From Patescibacteria group bacterium (GTDB lineage: Bacteria; Patescibacteriota; Patescibacteriia; SG8-24; DYFX01), in NCBI GenBank assembly GCA_041659045.1, contig JBAZZB010000001.1:70111-134110 (forward strand): a DNA stretch of 64,000 nt. The letters are read 5' to 3'. The notes under the pieces are model-generated. The model made no database searches. It was not told the origin of the DNA and saw nothing but the letters and a program-made list of their open reading frames with translations. Positions 9,585-56,088 of this stretch are shown piece by piece (position 1 is the stretch's first letter; every line of letters starts with the position of its first letter). The translations under genes and the position numbers were made by a program.

Positions 9585-9692
9585 GGCTCCTCCGAGGCGG
9601 AGAGTACTCGATTTGAGGCCGATTGTCAACCCTTGACGTGCGTGAATCCTTCCGGTAACCTCCTACCATAATTCTTATTGCTGAGTAGCCCT

Positions 9693-10379
9693 ATGGCAAT
9701 GGATGCAATCAAGCTGCCTCTCACCAAACGCGACGTGAAGGTGAAGGCCAAGATGCTGCGCGCGCAAGGTCTCATTCCCGCCGTCCTCTACGGACACGGA
9801 ACCGAGAACCACAACCTCGCAGTCCCGTACAACGTGTTTACGAAGGCCTTCAAGGCCGCCGGTGAATCCACCCTGATCGACCTCGAACTCGAGGGGAACG
9901 GCACGGTGAAGGCGCTGGTCAAAGACTGGCAGGTCGACCCGTTGTCGAACCGCTACATCCACGTCGACTTCTATCAGGTCAACCTGAAGGAGAAGCTCAA
10001 GGTGGAAATCGCGCTCAACTACGTCGGCGAATCGCCGGCGGTGAAGGAACAGGGCGGTTCGCTCGTGAAGAGCATGAACAGCCTGCGCGTCGAGTGTCTG
10101 CCGACCGACTTGGTCCACGCGATCGACGTCGACATCTCCAAGCTCAAAGCCTTCGAACAGATGATTCACGTGAGCGACCTCGTGTTGCCGAACGGAATCG
10201 AAGTCCTCGAAGACGCGAACGCCGTGGTTGTCCTGGTCGAAGCTCCGATGACCGAAGACCAGCTCAAGGCGCTCGAGAACGCCGCTCCGCTCGATGTCTC
10301 GGCGATCAAGACCGAGGCCGAAGAGAAGAAAGCTGCCGAGGATGCCGCCAAGGCCGCCGAGGAAGCTGCGAAGGCCTAA
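9693..10379 (+). CDS. rplY: 50S ribosomal protein L25 (Ctc form, with Lys/Ala/Glu-rich C-terminal tail)
   Basis: MAMDAIKLPLTKRD...LRAQGLIPAVLYGHG...VDFYQVNLKEKLKVEIAL...PTDLVHAIDVDISKLK; C-terminal tail KTEAEEKKAAEDAAKAAEEAAKA. Confidence 0.9.
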   Translation: MAMDAIKLPLTKRDVKVKAKMLRAQGLIPAVLYGHGTENHNLAVPYNVFTKAFKAAGESTLIDLELEGNGTVKALVKDWQVDPLSNRYIHVDFYQVNLKEKLKVEIALNYVGESPAVKEQGGSLVKSMNSLRVECLPTDLVHAIDVDISKLKAFEQMIHVSDLVLPNGIEVLEDANAVVVLVEAPMTEDQLKALENAAPLDVSAIKTEAEEKKAAEDAAKAAEEAAKA

Positions 10380-11314: not shown

Positions 11315-11713
11315 TCAGTTGGGCGGCGTGGGCAGGAGCTCGGCCTCGGTCAGCTCGCCCACGGCCACCATCTGCAGGAGCCGCACGAAGCCGCGCATGT
11401 GCAGCTCCGACTCGCTCATGTTCCGGGCCATGCGGGTGAGCAGGCCGGAGAGATCGAAGTTCGCGGTCTGCAGCGCCGGCGTCGCGGCGATCACGTCGCC
11501 GAGGTCCGACCAGAGGTTGGGCGTGGCGTAGATCTTGGCCGAGATGCCGAAGCGCTCGACGGTGGCCATGACCTGCTCGCGCTCGACGTAGCCGGTGGTC
11601 GGGGCCCGCCGCTTGCCCGGGTTCGGGATCAAGTGGTGGTGAGCCCAGGCGAGCCAGGTGACGGTCGTGAGCAACCTGCTTCCGAGAATCTGAACGTTGG
11701 TCTTCAAGAACAT
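11315..11713 (-). CDS. hypothetical protein, strongly GC3-biased (likely horizontally acquired)
   Basis: AAGGAGG RBS then ATG (MFLKTN...); contains a WLAWAHHH His cluster; codon usage very different from the flanking prmC and NTP-transferase genes. Confidence 0.5.
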   Translation of the reverse strand: MFLKTNVQILGSRLLTTVTWLAWAHHHLIPNPGKRRAPTTGYVEREQVMATVERFGISAKIYATPNLWSDLGDVIAATPALQTANFDLSGLLTRMARNMSESELHMRGFVRLLQMVAVGELTEAELLPTPPN

Positions 11714-11758
11714 CCTCCTTGTAGGATGGCGGAATTTCACCCTACTTTTTGAAAGGTG

Positions 11759-14168: not shown

Positions 14169-16196
14169 ATGCAGTGGATCACTCCACAGATGCTGGCTCT
14201 GTACGCGGGGGTTGCCTTCTTGGCACTCCTGATCCTGCCATCCATTCGGGTCATCGGACCTACGGAGGTTGGTCTCGTGACCAAACGCTTCGGCTTCAAG
14301 GAGCTGCCTGACGAGAATCCCATCGCCTTCAAGGGCGAGGCGGGGTTCCAGTCGGATCTGCTCCTGGCCGGATGGCACTTCAAGCTCTGGATCGTCTACG
14401 GCGTCCAGAAGTTCCCCTGGGTACAGGTGCCGGCGGGACAGATCGGTGTCGTCGTCGCCCAGCTCGGGCAGGCGCTGCCACCCGGCGCGAAGTCCGCGGC
14501 CTACAAGCAGGCGTTCGGCAACTTCACCGATCCTGCGGCGTTCGTGCAGCATGGCGGCCAGAAAGGCGCCCAGCGCCATCTGCTCATGCCCGGCACGTCG
14601 CTGCCGATCCATCCCGCGGCCTTCATGGTCATCACGAAGGAACGCGTCTACGGACTTCCGATCTCGCCGGAGCTCGAGCGCAAGGCCGGCAAGAACGGCC
14701 TGCGTCCTGAGGTCTTCGGCCTCGAGGCCACGCAGCTCGATCTCGTCCAGATCGGACCGGTGAAGGACAAGGAAGGCAAAGACACCGACATGATCGGTAT
14801 CGTGACCGCCCTCGAAGGCGATCCGCTGCCGCCGACCGACATCGCTTGCCGCCTCGGCGGCTTCACCGATCTCGGCACGATGATGCAGGGCGCCGACTGC
14901 AAGGACAGCGACCTCAGCGAGGCGTTGCTCGGCAGCCAGAACAAGCAGCACAACAACTACCAGAACTTCCAGGCGTTCCTCGACGCCGGCGGCAAGATCG
15001 GCGTCCAGCACGACCCACTCCTCTCCGGAGCGTACGCGCTGAACCCGTTCCTCGTCCGCGTCGAGCGCGTGCCGATGCTGGTCGTGAACCAGGGCGAGGT
15101 CGCGGTCGTGAAGGCCTTCGTCGGCCTGATGACCGAGGACGTCTCCGGCGCCGGGTACAAGCACGGCTCGCTCGTGCGCCCCGGCCGCCGCGGCATCTGG
15201 GAGGAGCCCCTCCGCACCGGCAAGTACGCGCTCAACCCGCGCTGCTACCAGGTCGAGATCGTGCCGACGGCGATCCTCACGCTCAACTGGGCGGAGGCCG
15301 TCTCCAAGGCGCACAACTTCGACTCGGGGCTGAGCCAGATCGACGCCAAGAGCCGTGAGGGCTTCGAGTTCGCCATCGACCTGCAGGTCCAGATCCACGT
15401 GCCTGACACCAACGCCTCGCGCGTGATCGCCGCGGTCGGGACGATGCACAACCTGGTCAACGAGGTCCTGCAGGCGGCGGTGGGCAACCACTTCCGCGAC
15501 AAGCTGCAGGGGCTCCCGGCCATCAAGTTCATCGAGACCCGCCAGGAGATCCAGGTCGAGGCGTTCGCCCACATCAAGCAGGAGCTGGCCAAGTATGATG
15601 TCGAGACACGCGGCGTCTACATCCAGGACGTCGTCCAGCCCAAGGCGCTGATCGACGTGCTCACGGAGCGCGAGATCGCGAACCAGAAGATCGCGACCTA
15701 CAAGAAGGAGCAGGAGGCCGAGGAGACGCGCGTCGCGATGGAGCAGGCGAAGGGCAAGGCCGACATGCAGGCCAAGCTCGCGCAGTCCACGGTGCAGGTC
15801 GACATCGAGACCAACAACGCCAACGCCCTCAGGGCCAAGGCGGGCGGCGAGTCGAACTACATCGAGACGGTCGGCGCCGCCGAGGCCGCCAAGATCAAGG
15901 CGCGCGGTCTCGCGGAGGCCGCCGGCTACCAGGCGCAGAAGGATGCGATCGGCCCGCAGGCGACCGCCATCGTCAACGCCATCCAGGCCATCGCCGACGG
16001 CAAGGTCAACATCATGCCCGAGGTGCTCGTGGTCGGCGGCGGAGGCGGCGCGTTCGAAGCGCTCGCCAGCGTCGTCACCCAGGCGGCTCGCTCCGGCAAC
16101 GTGCCCGGCCTCGGCAAGGCCCAGCCCGTCGCTTCGGCAGCGCCGCTCGAGAGCGGCAGCAACGGCAAGTCGCAGAGCGGCACACTCAACGGCTAG
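14169..16196 (+). CDS. SPFH/band-7 domain protein, flotillin-like (YqiK/FloT-type) with long coiled-coil tail; high-GC3 foreign-looking gene
   Basis: N-terminal TM segment, SPFH-like core, then an EA-rich coiled coil ([37 protein letters not shown]... [20 protein letters not shown]) and a GGGGG tail; about 68% GC versus about 57% in neighbouring genes. Confidence 0.65.
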
Positions 16197-16718: not shown

Positions 16719-17798
16719 TCATCCGTAGTCGCGGACGAGCTTGTACCAGTTCGGTTCCTTTCGTCCGGAGTGGAGGATGAAGATCGCTCCGCGCAGATGC
16801 CCGGGCACCTCCTGCTCCACCCAGGCGGCGAATGCCTTGCGGGATTCGCAACCCTTGGCGCGCTCCAGGTGAGAGAGCGTCTCGAGACGCAAGACTTCGA
16901 CCTTGGTGTCGATCTCCGCGACGATGCGATCCGCATCGATGCGAACCTCTTCGGTCACTTCGGCGACGAGCTTCAGGTACTTCTCCTTGCCGCCCGAGAC
17001 GAGTGCCTCCACGATGTTGGGCGTGGAGATGTCCCAGACGTTTCGACTCAGGGCGCAGTAGGCCTGACCCTTGAGCTTCACGCGCAGACCGTTGGCGAAC
17101 AGGAGGACGAATCCTTCCTGATCGGCCGGCAGCGCCTTGGCGGTGGCGAAGGCCTCCTCGAACGAGGAGAACTCGTACACCTTGGGCAGCCGCGCGCCGA
17201 TCGCCTTCGCGATCTCGACGACTTCGTTCCACGGCAACTCCTCGCCGGTGACCCGGTGACGAAGTCCGAGGAGCACGAGCCCTTCGTAGTCGTAGGTGAT
17301 GACCGAGAGAGCGAACCCTCCGGCCGTCTCGTGCTGCTTCGGGTACACGATCTCGAAGATCGGGGTGTAGCCTTCGGGCAGCGCCTCGAGTCGGAGCCGA
17401 TGCAGCATCTCGGTACCACGAAGCGCTTGCTTCGTATCGAAGCTACCGCGCGTCGCGATCCGTGCTTCGCCGTGCTCGTCGCGATACATCGTGCCGAGCG
17501 TGCCGTCGACCTTCTCGAACGCCTTGAAGGGCAGATCGGGGAGATCGGCGAACTGCGTCGACGACGGGTGGTTGCCGACGTTCGAGAACTTGTCGAAGGG
17601 GCGAGAAGCGATCGACCAGTCACGCGTGTCGATGATCAGGCCGCGACTGACGCGCAGGACGTCATCCCACGTACTCGTGGTCTCGCACTTCTCGGTGTAG
17701 TTGAACAGAACCAGTGGGCCCTGCTTCTTCACCGTGATCAGGTTCTCGTAGCGGGGGAAGAGCGTACCGTCTCGGTACAGCTCGATCACCTTGAGCAT
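16719..17798 (-). CDS. ATP-dependent RNA ligase, T4 Rnl1 (gp63)-like family; high-GC3 foreign-looking gene
   Basis: Nucleotidyltransferase motif I FEKVDGTLG (KxDG); GLIIDTRDWSIASRPFDKFSNVGNHP parallels T4 Rnl1 GIMFEMDG...IASRPMEKFFNLNENP; FEIVYP and a later GFVLLFANG...KLK motif. Start at M31 (GGAGG RBS); the upstream extension in the track is probably not translated. Confidence 0.65.
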   Translation of the reverse strand: MLKVIELYRDGTLFPRYENLITVKKQGPLVLFNYTEKCETTSTWDDVLRVSRGLIIDTRDWSIASRPFDKFSNVGNHPSSTQFADLPDLPFKAFEKVDGTLGTMYRDEHGEARIATRGSFDTKQALRGTEMLHRLRLEALPEGYTPIFEIVYPKQHETAGGFALSVITYDYEGLVLLGLRHRVTGEELPWNEVVEIAKAIGARLPKVYEFSSFEEAFATAKALPADQEGFVLLFANGLRVKLKGQAYCALSRNVWDISTPNIVEALVSGGKEKYLKLVAEVTEEVRIDADRIVAEIDTKVEVLRLETLSHLERAKGCESRKAFAAWVEQEVPGHLRGAIFILHSGRKEPNWYKLVRDYG

Positions 17799-17897
17799 GA
17801 GGGCCTCCAGCGGGTTGGGGGGGTACAGAAGCGGTGTCGATCGGAATGAGCGACCAGCTAAGGTACCCGATTTTAAGGCTTTTGTCAATATTCCCGC

Positions 17898-18031: not shown

Positions 18032-18793
18032 ATGTACGAGATTCCCGATCTTCTTGAGTTTCTCAAGACGGGCGCCCACTTCGGCCACCAGGTCTCGAAG
18101 TGGCACCCGAAAATGAAGCCGTTTATCTTCGGTTCGCGCAACGGCATTCACATCATCGACTTGGAGCAGACCGTCGTGAAGTTGAAAGAAGCGCTCGACA
18201 CCGCGCGCGACATGACCGCCAAGGGCGGCGTGATCGTCTTCCTCGGCACCAAGCGCCAAGCTGCGCCGATCGTTGAGAAGTACGCCAAGGCCTGCGGTGC
18301 TCCGTACATCACGACCCGCTGGCTCGGAGGCACGTTCACGAACTTCCCGGAACTCTCGAAGCTCATCAAAAAGCTCAACGAGTACCGCATGAAGCGCGAC
18401 ACGGGCGGCTTCGACAAGTACACGAAGAAGGAACGCGTTGTCATTGATCGCGAGATTGAAGACATGGAGCGCAAGGTCGGCGGCATCGCGCCTCTCACCA
18501 AGCTTCCGGAAGCGATCTTCGTGATCGACGCCAAGCACGAGAAAACGGCCGTTGAAGAATCGCGCGCCAAGAAGATCCCGATCTTCGGCCTGATCGACTC
18601 GAACATCAACCCGGAAGACATCACCTACGGCATTCCGGCCAACGACGACGCTGTGAAGTCCATCGAACTCTTCACACGTCTCTTCTCCGAAGCTGTGGCC
18701 GAAGGTCGCAAGATCTACGAGAAGAACGCGGCTGCCAAGAAGGTTGAAGCTGCGAAGGTGTCCGAAGAGCCGACTCGCGTCATCACCGCGTAA
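18032..18793 (+). CDS. rpsB: 30S ribosomal protein S2
   Basis: LLEFLKTGAHFGHQVSKWHPKMKPFIFGSRNGIHIIDLEQT...VIDAKHE...GLIDSNINPEDITYGIPANDD. Confidence 0.95.
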   Translation: MYEIPDLLEFLKTGAHFGHQVSKWHPKMKPFIFGSRNGIHIIDLEQTVVKLKEALDTARDMTAKGGVIVFLGTKRQAAPIVEKYAKACGAPYITTRWLGGTFTNFPELSKLIKKLNEYRMKRDTGGFDKYTKKERVVIDREIEDMERKVGGIAPLTKLPEAIFVIDAKHEKTAVEESRAKKIPIFGLIDSNINPEDITYGIPANDDAVKSIELFTRLFSEAVAEGRKIYEKNAAAKKVEAAKVSEEPTRVITA

Positions 18794-51553: not shown

Positions 51554-51586
51554 GCCTCGACCTTAGGTCGAGGCTTTGCCGATTTT
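51554..51586. terminator. bidirectional terminator between the helicase and the DHH gene
   Basis: gcctcgacc-ttag-gtcgaggc hairpin followed by tttgccgatttt; the TAA stop of the minus-strand gene lies in the loop. Confidence 0.6.
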
Positions 51587-52660
51587 GCCGTTGCGATCCC
51601 CGACGCGTCCGCGCCGCAGTTGGACCCGGCGCTTGAACTGAGCGCTGAGAAATGCGATGAGCAGGTCGGCCGATTCGGGAAACGGTACGTGGGGTTCGGC
51701 GAGCTGATAGCGCGCGCCGCCGGAGCCGTGCTTGGCGCCGCCGTTGCCTTTGCCGAAGATCTCCTCGATGAACTTGGTGAGGGGCAGCTCCTTGCTGTAG
51801 CTGCGCACCGACGCGCGTACCCAGGCGCCCGTGACGCCCCAGATGACGGTCGTCTCGGCGCCTTCGTTGCGACGCTGACGGTTGGCGATGATCGAGAGCA
51901 GGTCGCCGTCATCTTCCTTGAGGAGGCTGGTCGTGTGCGCGATACGTACGCCGTCGATCACTTCGATCGTGGCGAGGATCTCTCGCTCCAGATCCGAAAA
52001 GTGCGACGGAAGACGGAAGTTGAAGCACGCTTCGAGCAGCTCTTGATCGCCGTCCATCATGAGCCAGGCGAATGTTTCGATGTCCGCCGGACGTACGATG
52101 CCGAGCGTCAGGTGTTCGGTGTCCGAGTGGATACCGACGGCGGCAAGCGTACGGAGCTTCTTGTCCATCGGGACCTTGAGCTCGCGAGCGAGGAGCGTGC
52201 AGAGCGTTGTGGCCGAACCACACGATTCGATCAGATCGAAGCCGTTCTTGATCTTCATCGTCTGCTCGAGATGGTGGTCGACGCGGTAGACAAAGCGCTT
52301 CGGATCGATCTTCACACCGGCACCGAACCGCGAGTCTTCGAGCCGCGACGAATCGACGAGACCGAGCGGCCCTCTTTCAGGCAGCTCGGCGAGCGGTCGC
52401 ATCGTCTTCATCAGCTCCCACTCGTTGTAGAGGAGCTGGTTCTGCGGATGTCCGAAGCCGCCGGCGTAGTAGATCTCGCAGGCCACGCCTTGCGACTCGA
52501 AGAGTGCCTTCGTGACGTGTGCCGCCGCGATGCCGTCCGGATCGATCTGTGCGACGATGATCGAAATCTGTTCTGCCGCCTTCAGCGTCTTGATGAGGGC
52601 TTTGAGTCTCTGGATGTGATCGGGCTTCAAGAGACCGGTCGTGTTTGAATGTGCAGCCAT
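51563..52660 (-). CDS. DHH family phosphoesterase (NrnA-like), high-GC3 gene
   Basis: GGAGG RBS; DHH motifs IVAQIDPDGIAAAH, YRVDHH, DHHA1-like GGAKHGSGGA. Confidence 0.65.
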   Translation of the reverse strand: MAAHSNTTGLLKPDHIQRLKALIKTLKAAEQISIIVAQIDPDGIAAAHVTKALFESQGVACEIYYAGGFGHPQNQLLYNEWELMKTMRPLAELPERGPLGLVDSSRLEDSRFGAGVKIDPKRFVYRVDHHLEQTMKIKNGFDLIESCGSATTLCTLLARELKVPMDKKLRTLAAVGIHSDTEHLTLGIVRPADIETFAWLMMDGDQELLEACFNFRLPSHFSDLEREILATIEVIDGVRIAHTTSLLKEDDGDLLSIIANRQRRNEGAETTVIWGVTGAWVRASVRSYSKELPLTKFIEEIFGKGNGGAKHGSGGARYQLAEPHVPFPESADLLIAFLSAQFKRRVQLRRGRVGDRNGKIGKAST

Positions 52661-52734
52661 GCTTCCTCCGCGGCGAGCATACGCCTTTTACACGCCGTGT
52701 CAATGTGCTACATTCGTGCCGGAGGAATCCCAAC

Positions 52735-53271
52735 ATGCAACACATGACGGAAGACAAGGAATACGAAGAGAAGTTCCTGGTACGGCAGGATCTCTTGCCG
52801 CGTACGTTGCTGTCGGGCCTCTCTAGCATCCGACAGGGTTTTCTTTCGCTTGATCCGGTCGTGCGCATCCGTGAGCAAGACGGTGTCTATGTCGCCGAGT
52901 TCAAGGGTGGTGACGATGATGAGATCTTGATCGGGCATCCAACGCCGAAGCACGGCGCGAAGCTGCTCGGCCACTGCGCCGACGTGGCCGGCATCATCAC
53001 GAAAGGACGCGGTCGCATCGAAGCCGGTTTCGATCAGCGCGTGTGGGAACTCGATGTCTTCCGTGGGAAGAATGCGCCGCTCATGGTCGTCGAGATCGAG
53101 AAACCAACCAAGACGTATTCGCTCAAAAAGCACAAAGCGCTTTGGCCGGAGTGGATTGGCAAGAATGTCACGAAGGACAAGCGCTTCAAGAACAAATATC
53201 TTGCCGTGCACCCGTTCTCAACGTGGCCGAAGACCGAACAGAAGAAAATCCTCAGATTCATGGGCGTATAG
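52735..53271 (+). CDS. CYTH-domain (triphosphate tunnel metalloenzyme) protein
   Basis: GGAGGAA RBS; N-terminal EYEEKFLV matches the CYTH ExExK signature; about 180 aa. Confidence 0.55.
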   Translation: MQHMTEDKEYEEKFLVRQDLLPRTLLSGLSSIRQGFLSLDPVVRIREQDGVYVAEFKGGDDDEILIGHPTPKHGAKLLGHCADVAGIITKGRGRIEAGFDQRVWELDVFRGKNAPLMVVEIEKPTKTYSLKKHKALWPEWIGKNVTKDKRFKNKYLAVHPFSTWPKTEQKKILRFMGV

Positions 53272-53416
53272 CCCATTTTTTCTTTGGGGATAACTCAGGG
53301 TTGTGCCTGGGGGTAGAGGCACTATACTAGGGGCACCTAAGGACACCGCATATGTTGAACCGGACGCAATTCATTGCACGGCACACAGGCGATTTCCGAT
53401 TGGTAACAAAAAGCTC

Positions 53417-53443
53417 TTCATCGTGAAGAGTTTTTTGTATGCT
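53417..53443 (+). terminator. terminator-like hairpin downstream of CYTH gene
   Basis: aaaagctcttca-tcg-tgaagagtttttt. Confidence 0.45.
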
Positions 53444-53493
53444 CCTTGACCGGAGTTCCTTCCACCCACGTTGCAGACCAAGAGAGGTATGTC

Positions 53494-54921
53494 ATGGCGA
53501 ACAAGACCCCGCGTGAAGTTGTCGCGGAGTTTGCTGCGCAAGTCTGCGGCAAGCCCCCGAAGACGATTACTCCCGACGAGAAGACCAAGATTCTCGAGAA
53601 GTGCGTGCGGTACAAGATCGGTCGACGGCGCGTGGGCGAATGCCTGCGCGACCTCGGCTACAAGCAGGAGCTCCCCGCGCGCCAGCAGCCGCAGATTCTG
53701 AAGATGATCGCACGCGCCTTCAAGGCCGCGCAGAATCCCAAGAATCGGAACGAGCTGACGCTGCTCAAGGACAAGCTCCTCGCGGAAATCGAAGACGCAA
53801 CCAAGACGCTCGGCATCGCCAAGCCGTCGTGGGATCACGTCCTCGAGATCGCGCGCGGCATCTCGGGGCTTCCTCAGTGGCCACGCGCCACGGGGTTGCC
53901 GCCCGGCCCTCTGTCGGACGATGAACTGCGCAAGCAGCTCACCGACTTCATGGTGCGAGCGCGTACCGAAAAGGAGGTCAAGAAGAAGTACGGTGATCGC
54001 GGCCTCGCGCTGCTCGCCGGACTCGTTCAGACGCCTCCCGCCGGCTTTCGCATGAAGGATGGTCGCAACGAGTGGCAGGAGAAGACGCTCTACCTGGAGC
54101 AGATTCTCGGCAAGCGTGTCGTGAAGGTTGGCAAGCGCGTGTTCGAGATCCGGCACTCCGAGAACGACATCGACTACGTGTCGGTGATCTTTCCGCAGAG
54201 CCTGGATTTCGCCGACTCGCCCGAAGACAACCAGATCCGCATTCTGCCGATCGACACCGTCTGGTACGGAGACCACGGCTGCGACCTCGAGCGTTTCAAG
54301 GAGTACCTCCTGTACATCGAGCGCAAGCCGTACGTCTTCGCCTTCCTGAACGGCGACATCATCGGCGGCAGCGACTACACCAAGGATACGGCGGTGCTTC
54401 GGCGCGCGGAGCTCAAGGAGCTTCTCAAGCCGGTGGCACACAAGATCCTCTGGGCGCAGTCCGGGCCGCTCGAGCGTCGCATGCGCCGGGTCGACGGCAT
54501 CGAGCCTCTGGCTGACGTCTGCAACGACCTCAAGATCCATCACACGGATCGCCCGGTCGGCGCTGACGTCTACTGGAAGATCCCGACGAAGCCGATCGAG
54601 TTCGTCGCTCTGCACGGCCGTTCGCAGGCCCGCAAGGACGGCTCGAAGGTCAACGCCCTGCAAGACATCGTCGTCGGCAACAACTTCCCGCACTTCGTGG
54701 TCCTGGGCCACTTGCAGGAAGGCATCACCAAGAGCTTCACGGTGCGCCGGCGAGATCCGGTCAACCTGACGATCTTGGAGCATACGACGATCGGCATCGT
54801 TTGCCCGGGCTTCCGCAAGCACCGGGGATCCGACGCCGAGAAGAAGGGCTACCCGTCGCCGGCCATGGGCACCGTCGGGTGCCTGATCGGCGCCGACAAC
54901 TCCCACAAGGCCGCGAGCTAG
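53494..54921 (+). CDS. calcineurin-like phosphoesterase-related protein with degenerate catalytic motifs (paralog A), high-GC3 gene
   Basis: About 200-aa helical N-terminal region, then a C-terminal domain alignable to the downstream gene (PIDTVWYGDHGCD vs PFSDVHYGHRRCD, FLNGD in both, GYPSP vs GYSPG). The DxH of motif I is replaced by TVW, GNHD by GNNF, and GHxH by GHLQ. Confidence 0.5.
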   Translation: MANKTPREVVAEFAAQVCGKPPKTITPDEKTKILEKCVRYKIGRRRVGECLRDLGYKQELPARQQPQILKMIARAFKAAQNPKNRNELTLLKDKLLAEIEDATKTLGIAKPSWDHVLEIARGISGLPQWPRATGLPPGPLSDDELRKQLTDFMVRARTEKEVKKKYGDRGLALLAGLVQTPPAGFRMKDGRNEWQEKTLYLEQILGKRVVKVGKRVFEIRHSENDIDYVSVIFPQSLDFADSPEDNQIRILPIDTVWYGDHGCDLERFKEYLLYIERKPYVFAFLNGDIIGGSDYTKDTAVLRRAELKELLKPVAHKILWAQSGPLERRMRRVDGIEPLADVCNDLKIHHTDRPVGADVYWKIPTKPIEFVALHGRSQARKDGSKVNALQDIVVGNNFPHFVVLGHLQEGITKSFTVRRRDPVNLTILEHTTIGIVCPGFRKHRGSDAEKKGYPSPAMGTVGCLIGADNSHKAAS

Positions 54922-54929
54922 GAGGACGT

Positions 54930-56030
54930 ATGAAGAACAAGCACGCCTTGATCGAACAGTTGGTCAAGATCTCTTCTCGCGGCCGTCGCGTGGAAGAGAT
55001 CGCTCGCGAGCTTGAGGAGCCGGTCGACAAGATCCAAGCGCTCCTCGAGAGCAAGCCGCGCATGCCGGAAGGTTTCCTGCTCACGAGCTGGAAGGACCAT
55101 CTCGGCATGACGTACTGGCAAGTCCTGGCACCCGAAGCGCCGCCGCCGAAGATCGAACCGCGCGCGTACCGCTACGTCCGTTCGAAGGACGAGGCCTACC
55201 ACCGCGTGTTCATCCCCGACGACATCGTCGACGAGAACGGACGTCCCGCGAAGTACATCGAGCTGTTCCCGTTCTCCGACGTGCACTACGGGCATCGTCG
55301 CTGCGACAAGGGCAACTTCATGCGCGACGTGAAGGAAGTGGCGCGGCGGCCCAACCGCTACGGCTTCCTGAACGGCGACAACATGGAGATGTCTCTTGGC
55401 GACAGCGCTGGCGGTGCCGCGTGGGCCGAGCAGGACCTGACGCCCGAAGAGCAGCGCGAGAAGTCGGAACACATCTACCGGCCCATCGCGCACAAGCTCA
55501 TCGTGGCCCGTACGGGCAACCACGATGGTCGTCCGGGACGCAACGGCTCCGGCATGAATCCTCTGAAGGAAGTGTGCAAGAGCCTGGGCGGCATCCCGTA
55601 CTTCAACGGACCTTCCAACATGGACGTCATCTGGAGGGGGTACAGCTGGTCTTTCTTCATGAAGCACGGTACGGGGTCCTCGAACACGGCTGGCGGTAAG
55701 CTGAACACCGCCGGACGCGATCGTGGCTTCACCGACTTCCGGAACTTCTTCATCATGGGCCACGTCCACGATGAGATGTCCCACAAGGTCGTGCGAAAGG
55801 TGCGTCGCCGTGTCTATGACGCGGATGGCAAGCTCCAGCGCTTCTGGGAGGAAGAGCTTCGTGAGTACAAGGTGATCTGTCCGTCGTACCTGCTCTACTC
55901 GGGTACGTACGCGGAAGAAGCGGGGTACAGCCCCGGCAGCCGGAACACGATCGTGATCCAGTTGTTCGCCAGCGGCGACTACCGCGTGGTCTCGAGCAAG
56001 CGTGGACAGAACACGGTGCTCGCCATCTGA
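54930..56030 (+). CDS. calcineurin-like metallophosphoesterase (paralog B, all catalytic motifs intact), high-GC3 gene
   Basis: GGAGG RBS; SDVHYGH (DxH), FLNGD (GD), TGNHDGRP (GNHD), IMGHVHDE (GHxH); about 95-aa N-terminal helical extension. Confidence 0.6.
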   Translation: MKNKHALIEQLVKISSRGRRVEEIARELEEPVDKIQALLESKPRMPEGFLLTSWKDHLGMTYWQVLAPEAPPPKIEPRAYRYVRSKDEAYHRVFIPDDIVDENGRPAKYIELFPFSDVHYGHRRCDKGNFMRDVKEVARRPNRYGFLNGDNMEMSLGDSAGGAAWAEQDLTPEEQREKSEHIYRPIAHKLIVARTGNHDGRPGRNGSGMNPLKEVCKSLGGIPYFNGPSNMDVIWRGYSWSFFMKHGTGSSNTAGGKLNTAGRDRGFTDFRNFFIMGHVHDEMSHKVVRKVRRRVYDADGKLQRFWEEELREYKVICPSYLLYSGTYAEEAGYSPGSRNTIVIQLFASGDYRVVSSKRGQNTVLAI

Positions 56031-56039
56031 AACGCATAA

Positions 56040-56074
56040 CCCCCCGACATACGTCGGAGGGTTTTTCTTTTTTC
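56040..56074. terminator. bidirectional intrinsic terminator
   Basis: ccccccgac-atac-gtcggaggg hairpin followed by tttttcttttttc; a convergent minus-strand gene ends 15 nt further on. Confidence 0.8.
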
Positions 56075-56088
56075 TGCGTTGGCGTCGC

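Follow-up and report, generated by a model that had tools for sequence, protein, structure and literature searches.

A conserved Patescibacteria gene pair encoding a DP1-like metallophosphoesterase and its catalytically degenerate paralogue

The window analysed here is a stretch of 64,000 nucleotides from a Patescibacteria group bacterium (GenBank assembly GCA_041659045.1, contig JBAZZB010000001.1, positions 70,111 to 134,110 of the forward strand), and the subject is a pair of adjacent, co-directional genes within it, designated A and B, whose products are a catalytically degenerate and an intact calcineurin-like metallophosphoesterase, respectively. The interpretation preferred, held at about even confidence, is that A and B make up one resident enzyme that acts on nucleic acid and in which the dead protein A would be an obligate partner. 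Within this interpretation, the association of A and B in a heteromer is predicted with reasonable confidence, while nucleic acid as the substrate of B is predicted more tentatively, at slightly less than even confidence. The two genes and the domains of their products are arranged as follows.

53494-54921, + strand: gene A, open reading frame (ORF) of 475 amino acids
53494-53910, + strand: gene A residues 1-139, basic helical N-terminal region (charge +11, isoelectric point (pI) 9.9)
53911-54108, + strand: gene A residues ~140-205, predicted winged helix (alignment to the B N-terminus; model helices 142-152 and 159-179, hairpin 185-203)
54226-54921, + strand: gene A residues 245-475, pseudo-metallophosphoesterase domain (motifs DTVW, GD, GPLE, H and GHLQ)
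54920-54925, + strand: AGGAGG ribosome-binding site of B, overlapping the stop codon of A
54930-56030, + strand: gene B, ORF of 366 amino acids
54930-55127, + strand: gene B residues 1-66, predicted winged helix (three helices and a beta-hairpin in the model)
55248-56030, + strand: gene B residues 107-366, intact metallophosphoesterase domain (D117/H119, D150, N197/H198, H246, H278/H280)

By alignment, A and B are paralogues along the whole length of B. Residues 145-475 of A align with residues 7-355 of B (BLASTP, 23% identity, E 3e-20) and the profiles of the two families match over 350 columns (hhalign probability 100%, E 1.6e-71), so that A consists of a B-like body preceded by about 140 N-terminal residues that B lacks. 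An earlier note on this DNA, made from the sequence alone, had correctly described homologous C-terminal domains, but its account of different N-terminal extensions of about 200 and about 95 residues does not stand, since A145-245 is homologous to B7-107 and only residues 1 to about 140 are unique to A. The structural model of B (predicted local distance difference test (pLDDT) 92) comprises a winged helix at residues 1-66, a short beta linker and a phosphoesterase domain at residues 107-357, with residues 1-108 modelled as three helices, a hairpin and two short strands, and the model of A (pLDDT 88) has the same arrangement after its helical region. The two winged helices, one in each protein, are mutually homologous and only mildly basic (pI ~8-9), and are accompanied by weak winged helix-turn-helix (HTH) Pfam matches in family members and an HTH-repeat match in the PDB. 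The unique region of A differs in fold by lineage: most orthologues carry repeats of a W-x-E...R type (Myb/GcrA-like), for which the matches to Myb and GcrA are weak and confined to few members, and the lineage of the window carries another helical version. Across the family the region is strongly basic, with a median charge of +12 and a pI of 10.5.

All five metallophosphoesterase motifs are complete in B (SDVHYGH, FLNGD, GNHD, the motif-IV HG with H246, and GHVHD), which bears out the initial reading that B keeps its signatures. In A, motifs I, III and V are lost, reading DTVW, GPLE and GHLQ. A still has the motif-II GD, the His of motif IV and, immediately N-terminal to the place of the lost motif-I Asp, an Asp that is invariant. 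The replacement of DVH by TVW and of GHVH by GHLQ had been recognised before; the GNNF then taken for motif III instead sits between motifs IV and V, aligned to GFTDF of B, and it is SGPLE (A 323-327) that occupies the motif-III position. These comparisons were extended to 34 proteins from independent loci (18 B-type and 16 A-type), in which the metal-binding motif residues are invariant in every B-type protein. All 16 A-type proteins lack the motif-III Asn-His pair and the second motif-V His, most lack the motif-I His, and six lack the motif-II Asp. B thus has the five motifs of the calcineurin-like superfamily (DxH, GD, GNH[ED], H, GHxH) and A lacks them as a set, and A is therefore a pseudo-member of the calcineurin-like metallophosphoesterase superfamily. 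The beta-sandwich phosphoesterase fold is present. At the DNA level, the segments encoding motif II (FLNGD) of A (54327-54362) and of B (55349-55384) are 81% identical over 36 nucleotides, the proteins being 23% identical overall.

The loss of motifs I, III and V would fit a decaying duplicate without function, but this reading is refuted by conservation and is left with next to no probability. A is full-length and intact in 16 loci, has a confidently predicted fold, and shows 33 invariant and many near-invariant columns in a family alignment with a mean column identity of 52%; it is under strong constraint. The dead state is, in addition, ancient and common to several divergent subfamilies, and in one lineage A appears fused to B. 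The protein concerned, P0110 (781 amino acids), is encoded by one called gene among housekeeping neighbours (YceG, PAP2, HhH-GPD, enolase and PGK), combines a dead A-type with an active B-type domain, and may be a natural A-B fusion, though an assembly artefact is possible.

Pairing of the two genes is conserved well beyond the window. Twenty loci had enough sequence to be judged, and in 18 of them an intact B-type gene is immediately preceded, on the same strand, by an A-type gene whose motifs III and V are dead; the two unpaired exceptions (L012 and L013) are phage-like contigs. The series of pairs extends down to about 28% identity, into metagenome-assembled genomes (MAGs) of Paceibacterota and Saccharibacteria, and nine orthologous pairs have a 4-nucleotide stop/start overlap, three by gene calls and six from ORF coordinates. 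In the window itself the stop codon of A (TAG, 54919-54921) and the ATG of B (54930) leave the 8-nucleotide gap already described, and the ribosome-binding site reported in front of B proves to be AGGAGG; its overlap with the stop codon, together with the short gap, makes translational coupling of A and B likely. The proposal of a co-transcribed pair of an active and a degenerate protein is thus supported. The earlier note had also set out what would undo it, namely assignment of both proteins to a well-characterised single-gene family, with no conserved pairing and with catalytic residues intact in A; the proteins instead belong to no such family, are conserved as a pair, and differ in exactly those residues.

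The genes surrounding the pair are likewise conserved. metK adjoins it at 11 distinct loci, and at eight uvrD is no more than a few kb away, as in the window; this synteny spans genomes whose B proteins are merely 33-40% identical. In the nearest relative, locus L014, the stretch from uvrD through metK aligns collinearly with the window (74-80% nucleotide identity). Amino acid identity to this relative is 67% for A and 74% for B, compared with 91% for uvrD (91-97% for the flanking uvrD and metK), and on these values A and B are evolving faster than their flanking genes. Several of the source records look mislabelled: the MAG records for L014-L016, L019 and L020 are labelled 'uncultured Gammaproteobacteria bacterium' and that for L017 'Candidatus Binatia', despite a Patescibacteria-type locus, the uvrD of L014, for example, being 91% identical to that of the window.

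Paralogy, catalytic loss in one partner and conserved co-occurrence, the genomic marks of a prozyme-type system, are all found for A and B. According to two published accounts, a dead paralogue is kept as an obligate partner in trypanosomatid AdoMetDC, deoxyhypusine synthase and PRMT1 (PMC5201418, PMC3663545). Those enzyme-prozyme pairs are unrelated to A and B in fold and in organism, and activation by A is hypothetical. Such pairs being already known with other folds, what would be new here is the combination of a DP1-like metallophosphoesterase, an obligate dead paralogue and winged-helix modules.

Scans of A and B against Pfam, NCBIfam and PADLOC returned nothing significant, in keeping with the initial suggestion of an undescribed module. 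Both proteins do belong to PHROG 7339 ('DNA repair exonuclease'), the profile of which matches B at E 6.4e-28 and A at E 2.9e-9. The phage proteins of this group differ from the pair in that they are single-copy, about 240-300 amino acids long, mostly without the winged helix and without a dead partner. Single-copy relatives were found by tblastn in 21 phage genomes at up to 34% identity, together with structural matches in BFVD, and lie near RusA, a Holliday-junction resolvase, a PD-(D/E)XK protein and methyltransferases; no consistent function-indicating neighbour emerged from the phage neighbourhoods of homologues. An exhaustive profile search returned 513 cluster representatives at E <= 1e-30 and 2,763 (50%-identity clusters) at E <= 1e-10, many of which are standalone proteins of 240-300 amino acids resembling the single-copy phage relatives in size and architecture. 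About 30 of the 128 best representatives, a set that excludes the two window proteins, are dead-type, in several distinct flavours, and two more dead subfamilies seen in a random sample are each followed by an active gene of 352 amino acids in a housekeeping context. Five relatives (P0116, P0181, P0186, P0202 and P0223) are interrupted by inteins at the active site, directly after the motif-III GNHE or just before the motif-V GHVH. Inteins occur mostly in enzymes of DNA metabolism. A degenerate-pattern scan, built on 16 sequences and run over 185,579 species-representative genomes, found at least 10 loci. The family seems largely confined to bacteria of the candidate phyla radiation (CPR) and phage-like contigs. 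The exact sequence of A has already been deposited as a hypothetical protein, encoded on a 646-kb contig of a MAG from the Patescibacteria group; nothing on metallophosphoesterases of Patescibacteria or Parcubacteria was found in the literature, and the A-B family appears to be undescribed so far.

The closest solved relative of both A and B is DP1, the small subunit of archaeal PolD (PDB 5ihe). When the B-family profile was searched against the PDB, DP1 chains were the only metallophosphoesterases matched, and the A-family profile gave no meaningful match. In hhalign comparisons, the B family matched a 102-residue DP1 fragment (motifs I-III and the II/III insert) with a probability of 96% (E 3e-9), whereas the probability for full-length Escherichia coli SbcD was 0.75%. 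Fold searches placed DP1 first for both proteins and the inactive eukaryotic B-subunits next; with A as query the values were 16.8 for DP1 and 15.4 for p50, the ranking being as for B. Two more familiar assignments were rejected on the way, a Ser/Thr protein phosphatase by its missing PPP-type motifs and low structural rank, and LpxH by its low structural rank, these bacteria not being expected to make lipid A. Nor do the loci resemble Mre11/SbcD systems: these form homodimers with two active sites, while the A-B loci are, every one, without a Rad50/SbcC ATPase gene, the proteins lack a capping domain, and neither the SMC-like ATPase neighbour nor the sequence relationship expected of an Mre11/SbcD-Rad50/SbcC system was found.

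This ranking bears directly on a different reading of the pair, in which B is a signalling or metabolic phosphoesterase that hydrolyses a nucleotide-type small molecule (a cyclic or linear oligonucleotide, Ap4A, pAp or a polyphosphate-linked nucleotide) or dephosphorylates proteins, A senses a ligand in its degenerate pocket, and the winged helices serve transcription control. The pocket of A is partly kept, in that the Asp beside motif I, the motif-II GD, the His of motif IV and the motif-III Glu are invariant or nearly so, and could bind a ligand without turnover; genes resembling DHH-type phosphoesterases and CYTH proteins also stand directly upstream of the pair, both in the window and in L014. 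However, those neighbours are missing at the other loci compared, fold comparison of A as well as of B ranks DP1 and the polymerase B-subunits above every small-molecule enzyme, DP1 alone was found by profile, and the relatives carry inteins and sit in phage neighbourhoods of DNA metabolism. A signalling or metabolic role is accordingly considered unlikely, though it is the most probable of the alternatives to a nucleic-acid enzyme.

The resemblance to DP1 raises the further question of how far it reaches. B, like DP1, retains all five catalytic motifs and has the DP1-type phosphodiesterase domain. At its fullest, the likeness would make the pair a true counterpart of DP1 and the B-subunits, with B as an accessory 3'-5' exonuclease that proofreads or processes primer ends and A as a scaffold docking on a polymerase or the replisome. 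The profile match takes in the family-specific II/III insert, DP1 and then the inactive B-subunits head the structural matches of A and B alike, the combination of an active with a dead protein parallels that of DP1 versus the eukaryotic B-subunits (PMC7544198), and the codon usage of A and B resembles that of the ribosomal-protein genes of the window (S2 and L25), all of which speak for this counterpart reading. Yet the modelled structures of A and B have a winged helix in place of the OB fold, no match to PF04042 was found for the window proteins or family members, and the neighbours of the pair at about 20 loci include no polymerase, DP2-like, PolB or zinc-finger C-terminal-domain gene. The family is moreover bacterial and phage-borne, shares only 12-15% identity with DP1, has a patchy distribution and is partnered by a dead paralogue rather than a polymerase. 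The published phylogeny of DP1 and the B-subunits covers archaea and eukaryotes only (PMC7544198). The B-subunits themselves (Pol delta p50, Pol alpha B and Pol epsilon p59) contain an OB fold and attach to their polymerase at its zinc-finger C-terminal domain, unlike A, which has a basic Myb-like or helical N-terminus and a winged helix and is encoded beside its active paralogue. With no OB fold, PF04042 match or nearby polymerase, and given the limits of the phylogeny, the pair is therefore regarded as DP1-like in its catalytic domain and not as a member of that family, and a strict counterpart is judged improbable. A looser relationship is also on the unlikely side, though less so, in which the family would be the sister lineage, in bacteria and phages, of the DP1/B-subunit phosphodiesterase domain and the CPR operon an active exonuclease with a dead scaffold in replication or repair.

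Under the interpretation preferred here, a single nucleic-acid-acting enzyme built from both proteins, the ancestor would have been a homodimeric phosphodiesterase of the type found in phages (PHROG 7339); it would have been duplicated, and the duplicates would have become a heterodimer with a single working two-metal active site, in B. The basic N-terminal region of A and the two winged helices would hold the complex on nucleic acid, where B would cleave phosphodiester bonds. B would be an exo- or endonuclease that serves DNA repair or the processing of ends, an exonuclease in the style of DP1/Mre11 being the likeliest form, and A would position, tether or activate B in the manner of a prozyme. 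The operon would be run from its own promoter with a conserved hairpin leader. Points in favour of this interpretation are the operon layout, the paralogy, the motif pattern, the constraint on A, the conserved pairing and P0110, together with the DP1 and PHROG 7339 matches, the phage neighbourhoods, the inteins, the basic N-terminal region of A, the synteny with uvrD and metK, and the codon usage; for a physical A-B complex, the stop/start overlaps and P0110 give indirect support. Several observations weigh against it. The metallophosphoesterase fold also serves the hydrolysis of small molecules, lipids and protein phosphates; the winged helices are only mildly basic and could make protein rather than DNA contacts; and the PHROG 7339 name is a putative label that comes from annotation. 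Neither window protein, B included, matches Pfam PF00149 even at E = 1, and 39 of the 58 B-family members match it weakly (best E 5e-7). As uvrD and metK are mostly on the opposite strand, their synteny with the pair may be functionally meaningless, and the patchy distribution, for which the loci found by the pattern scan are a lower bound, would speak against a universal core function.

The raised G/C content at third codon positions (GC3) of A and B had led the earlier note to place them in a foreign island. GC3 is indeed high, at 0.86 for A and 0.84 for B where most genes of the window have 0.60-0.72, but the contrast then drawn with housekeeping genes fails, since S2 (0.81) and L25 (0.82) are comparable, as are the genes of a Band7 protein (0.92) and of an RNA ligase (0.82). 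Among the genomes checked, all the GC-rich ones (L002, L006, L008 and L014) have A and B orthologues with a GC3 above that of the flanking genes, and in the AT-rich L001 and L005 the orthologues show no excess. The shared excess in orthologues and ribosomal-protein genes therefore makes the raised GC3 a property of the genes themselves, so that raised GC3 is by itself a poor sign of foreign DNA, and the codon usage shared with ribosomal-protein genes fits a housekeeping function in constitutive use. The high-GC3 class of the window (0.81-0.93) lies at 9678-10379, 11315-11740 (- strand), 14169-16196, 16719-17888 (- strand) and 18032-18793, and its members are L25, S2, the Band7/SPFH protein (675 amino acids), the RNA ligase, which is of T4 Rnl1 type, and an unannotated ORF of 141 amino acids. 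Antisense to these genes run long spurious ORFs with G/C at first codon positions above 0.77, which could mislead ORF-based gene calling.

A horizontally acquired defence module in such an island, with B as effector and A as sensor, would draw on this raised GC and GC3 over the pair, on the faster divergence of A and B than of uvrD and metK from L014 (67-74% versus 91-97%), on the phage relatives, and on a contig (L011, 1-15044, GCA_040384425.1) in which the pair sits amid unannotated small genes. It is largely refuted and held to be very improbable. Neither A nor B matches any defence model of PADLOC-DB v2 at E <= 0.1, so that a defence-type effector with a sensor partner is not supported; the synteny with housekeeping genes is kept over deep divergence and the locus is collinear with its nearest relative; no tRNA, integrase or att-like flanking direct repeat was found (whole-window tRNA and Rfam scans, and a repeat search); and the GC3 excess is common to orthologues and to the ribosomal-protein genes of the window. 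With the synteny, the collinearity and the lack of mobility signatures the foreign-GC island has to be given up, and on this genomic evidence the A-B pair is an old, resident operon of Patescibacteria rather than foreign DNA. The L011 contig (276 kb) carries its A-B pair among about 18 unannotated genes, of which eight neighbours were compared with PHROGs and gave no match, DUF6744 being the sole family on record for any neighbour; the region could be a novel mobile element or phage of a CPR bacterium.

The genomes of CPR bacteria are small and rich in unannotated genes, and a conserved two-gene module standing beside housekeeping genes therefore probably belongs to their core nucleic-acid handling. 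The A-B pair offers a clean natural system of an enzyme and its dead paralogue in a bacterium, whereas most other known cases of prozyme-type regulation are eukaryotic. The pair also brings into bacteria and phages a DP1-type phosphodiesterase, hitherto discussed only for archaeal PolD and the eukaryotic B-subunits, and so bears on the origin of those subunits, and it gives a context to several thousand uncharacterised relatives, among them the single-copy phage forms and those interrupted by inteins. Should the sister-lineage relationship be true, DP1-type exonucleases would exist outside Archaea and Eukarya, and the pair would provide an independent and tractable case of the transition from active enzyme to scaffold that has been proposed for the eukaryotic B-subunits.

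The pair is bounded by the following signals, of which the promoter-like element was read from the sequence.

53260-53285, + strand: intrinsic-terminator-like hairpin with T-run (stem 53260-53276, tail TTTTTCTTTG), closing the CYTH-like gene
53301-53328, + strand: promoter-like TTGTGC-16 nt-TATACT, 5' of A
53408-53437, + strand: perfect leader hairpin AAAAAGCUCUUCA-UCG-UGAAGAGUUUUUU with a U-run, about 55 nucleotides 5' of the A start (fold z-score -2.15)
56044-56075, + strand: terminator-like hairpin CCGACATACGTCGG followed by a T-run, 14 nucleotides past the B stop

The first of these hairpins marks the 5' limit of the unit and the last the 3' limit of the operon, and with terminator-like hairpins on both sides A and B therefore form a self-contained bicistronic unit. 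A consensus promoter scan did not flag the promoter-like element; its TATACT (-10-like) and spacing are kept in L014, where the -35-like hexamer is one base off (TTGTGT), and orthologous loci have TTGACA-17-TAnGAT at the equivalent place. The leader (53272-53493) is conserved with L014 about as well as coding DNA (74%) or somewhat better, and the leader of L001 has a comparable hairpin (GCTCTTC...GAAGAGC). No Rfam family matched the leader, and a metagenome pattern scan with it found only the organism of L014 itself and three chance matches. The hairpin may be an attenuator, a small RNA or the end of one.

The two genes upstream of the pair (51563-52660, - strand, and 52645-53271, + strand) have the look of a DHH-type phosphoesterase, with the DHH motif, and a CYTH-like protein, and were identified by motifs alone, neither having a Pfam match at E <= 0.001. 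The DHH-like gene of L014 is only 29% identical to that of the window, whereas the flanking uvrD is 91% identical, and this gene may therefore have been replaced.

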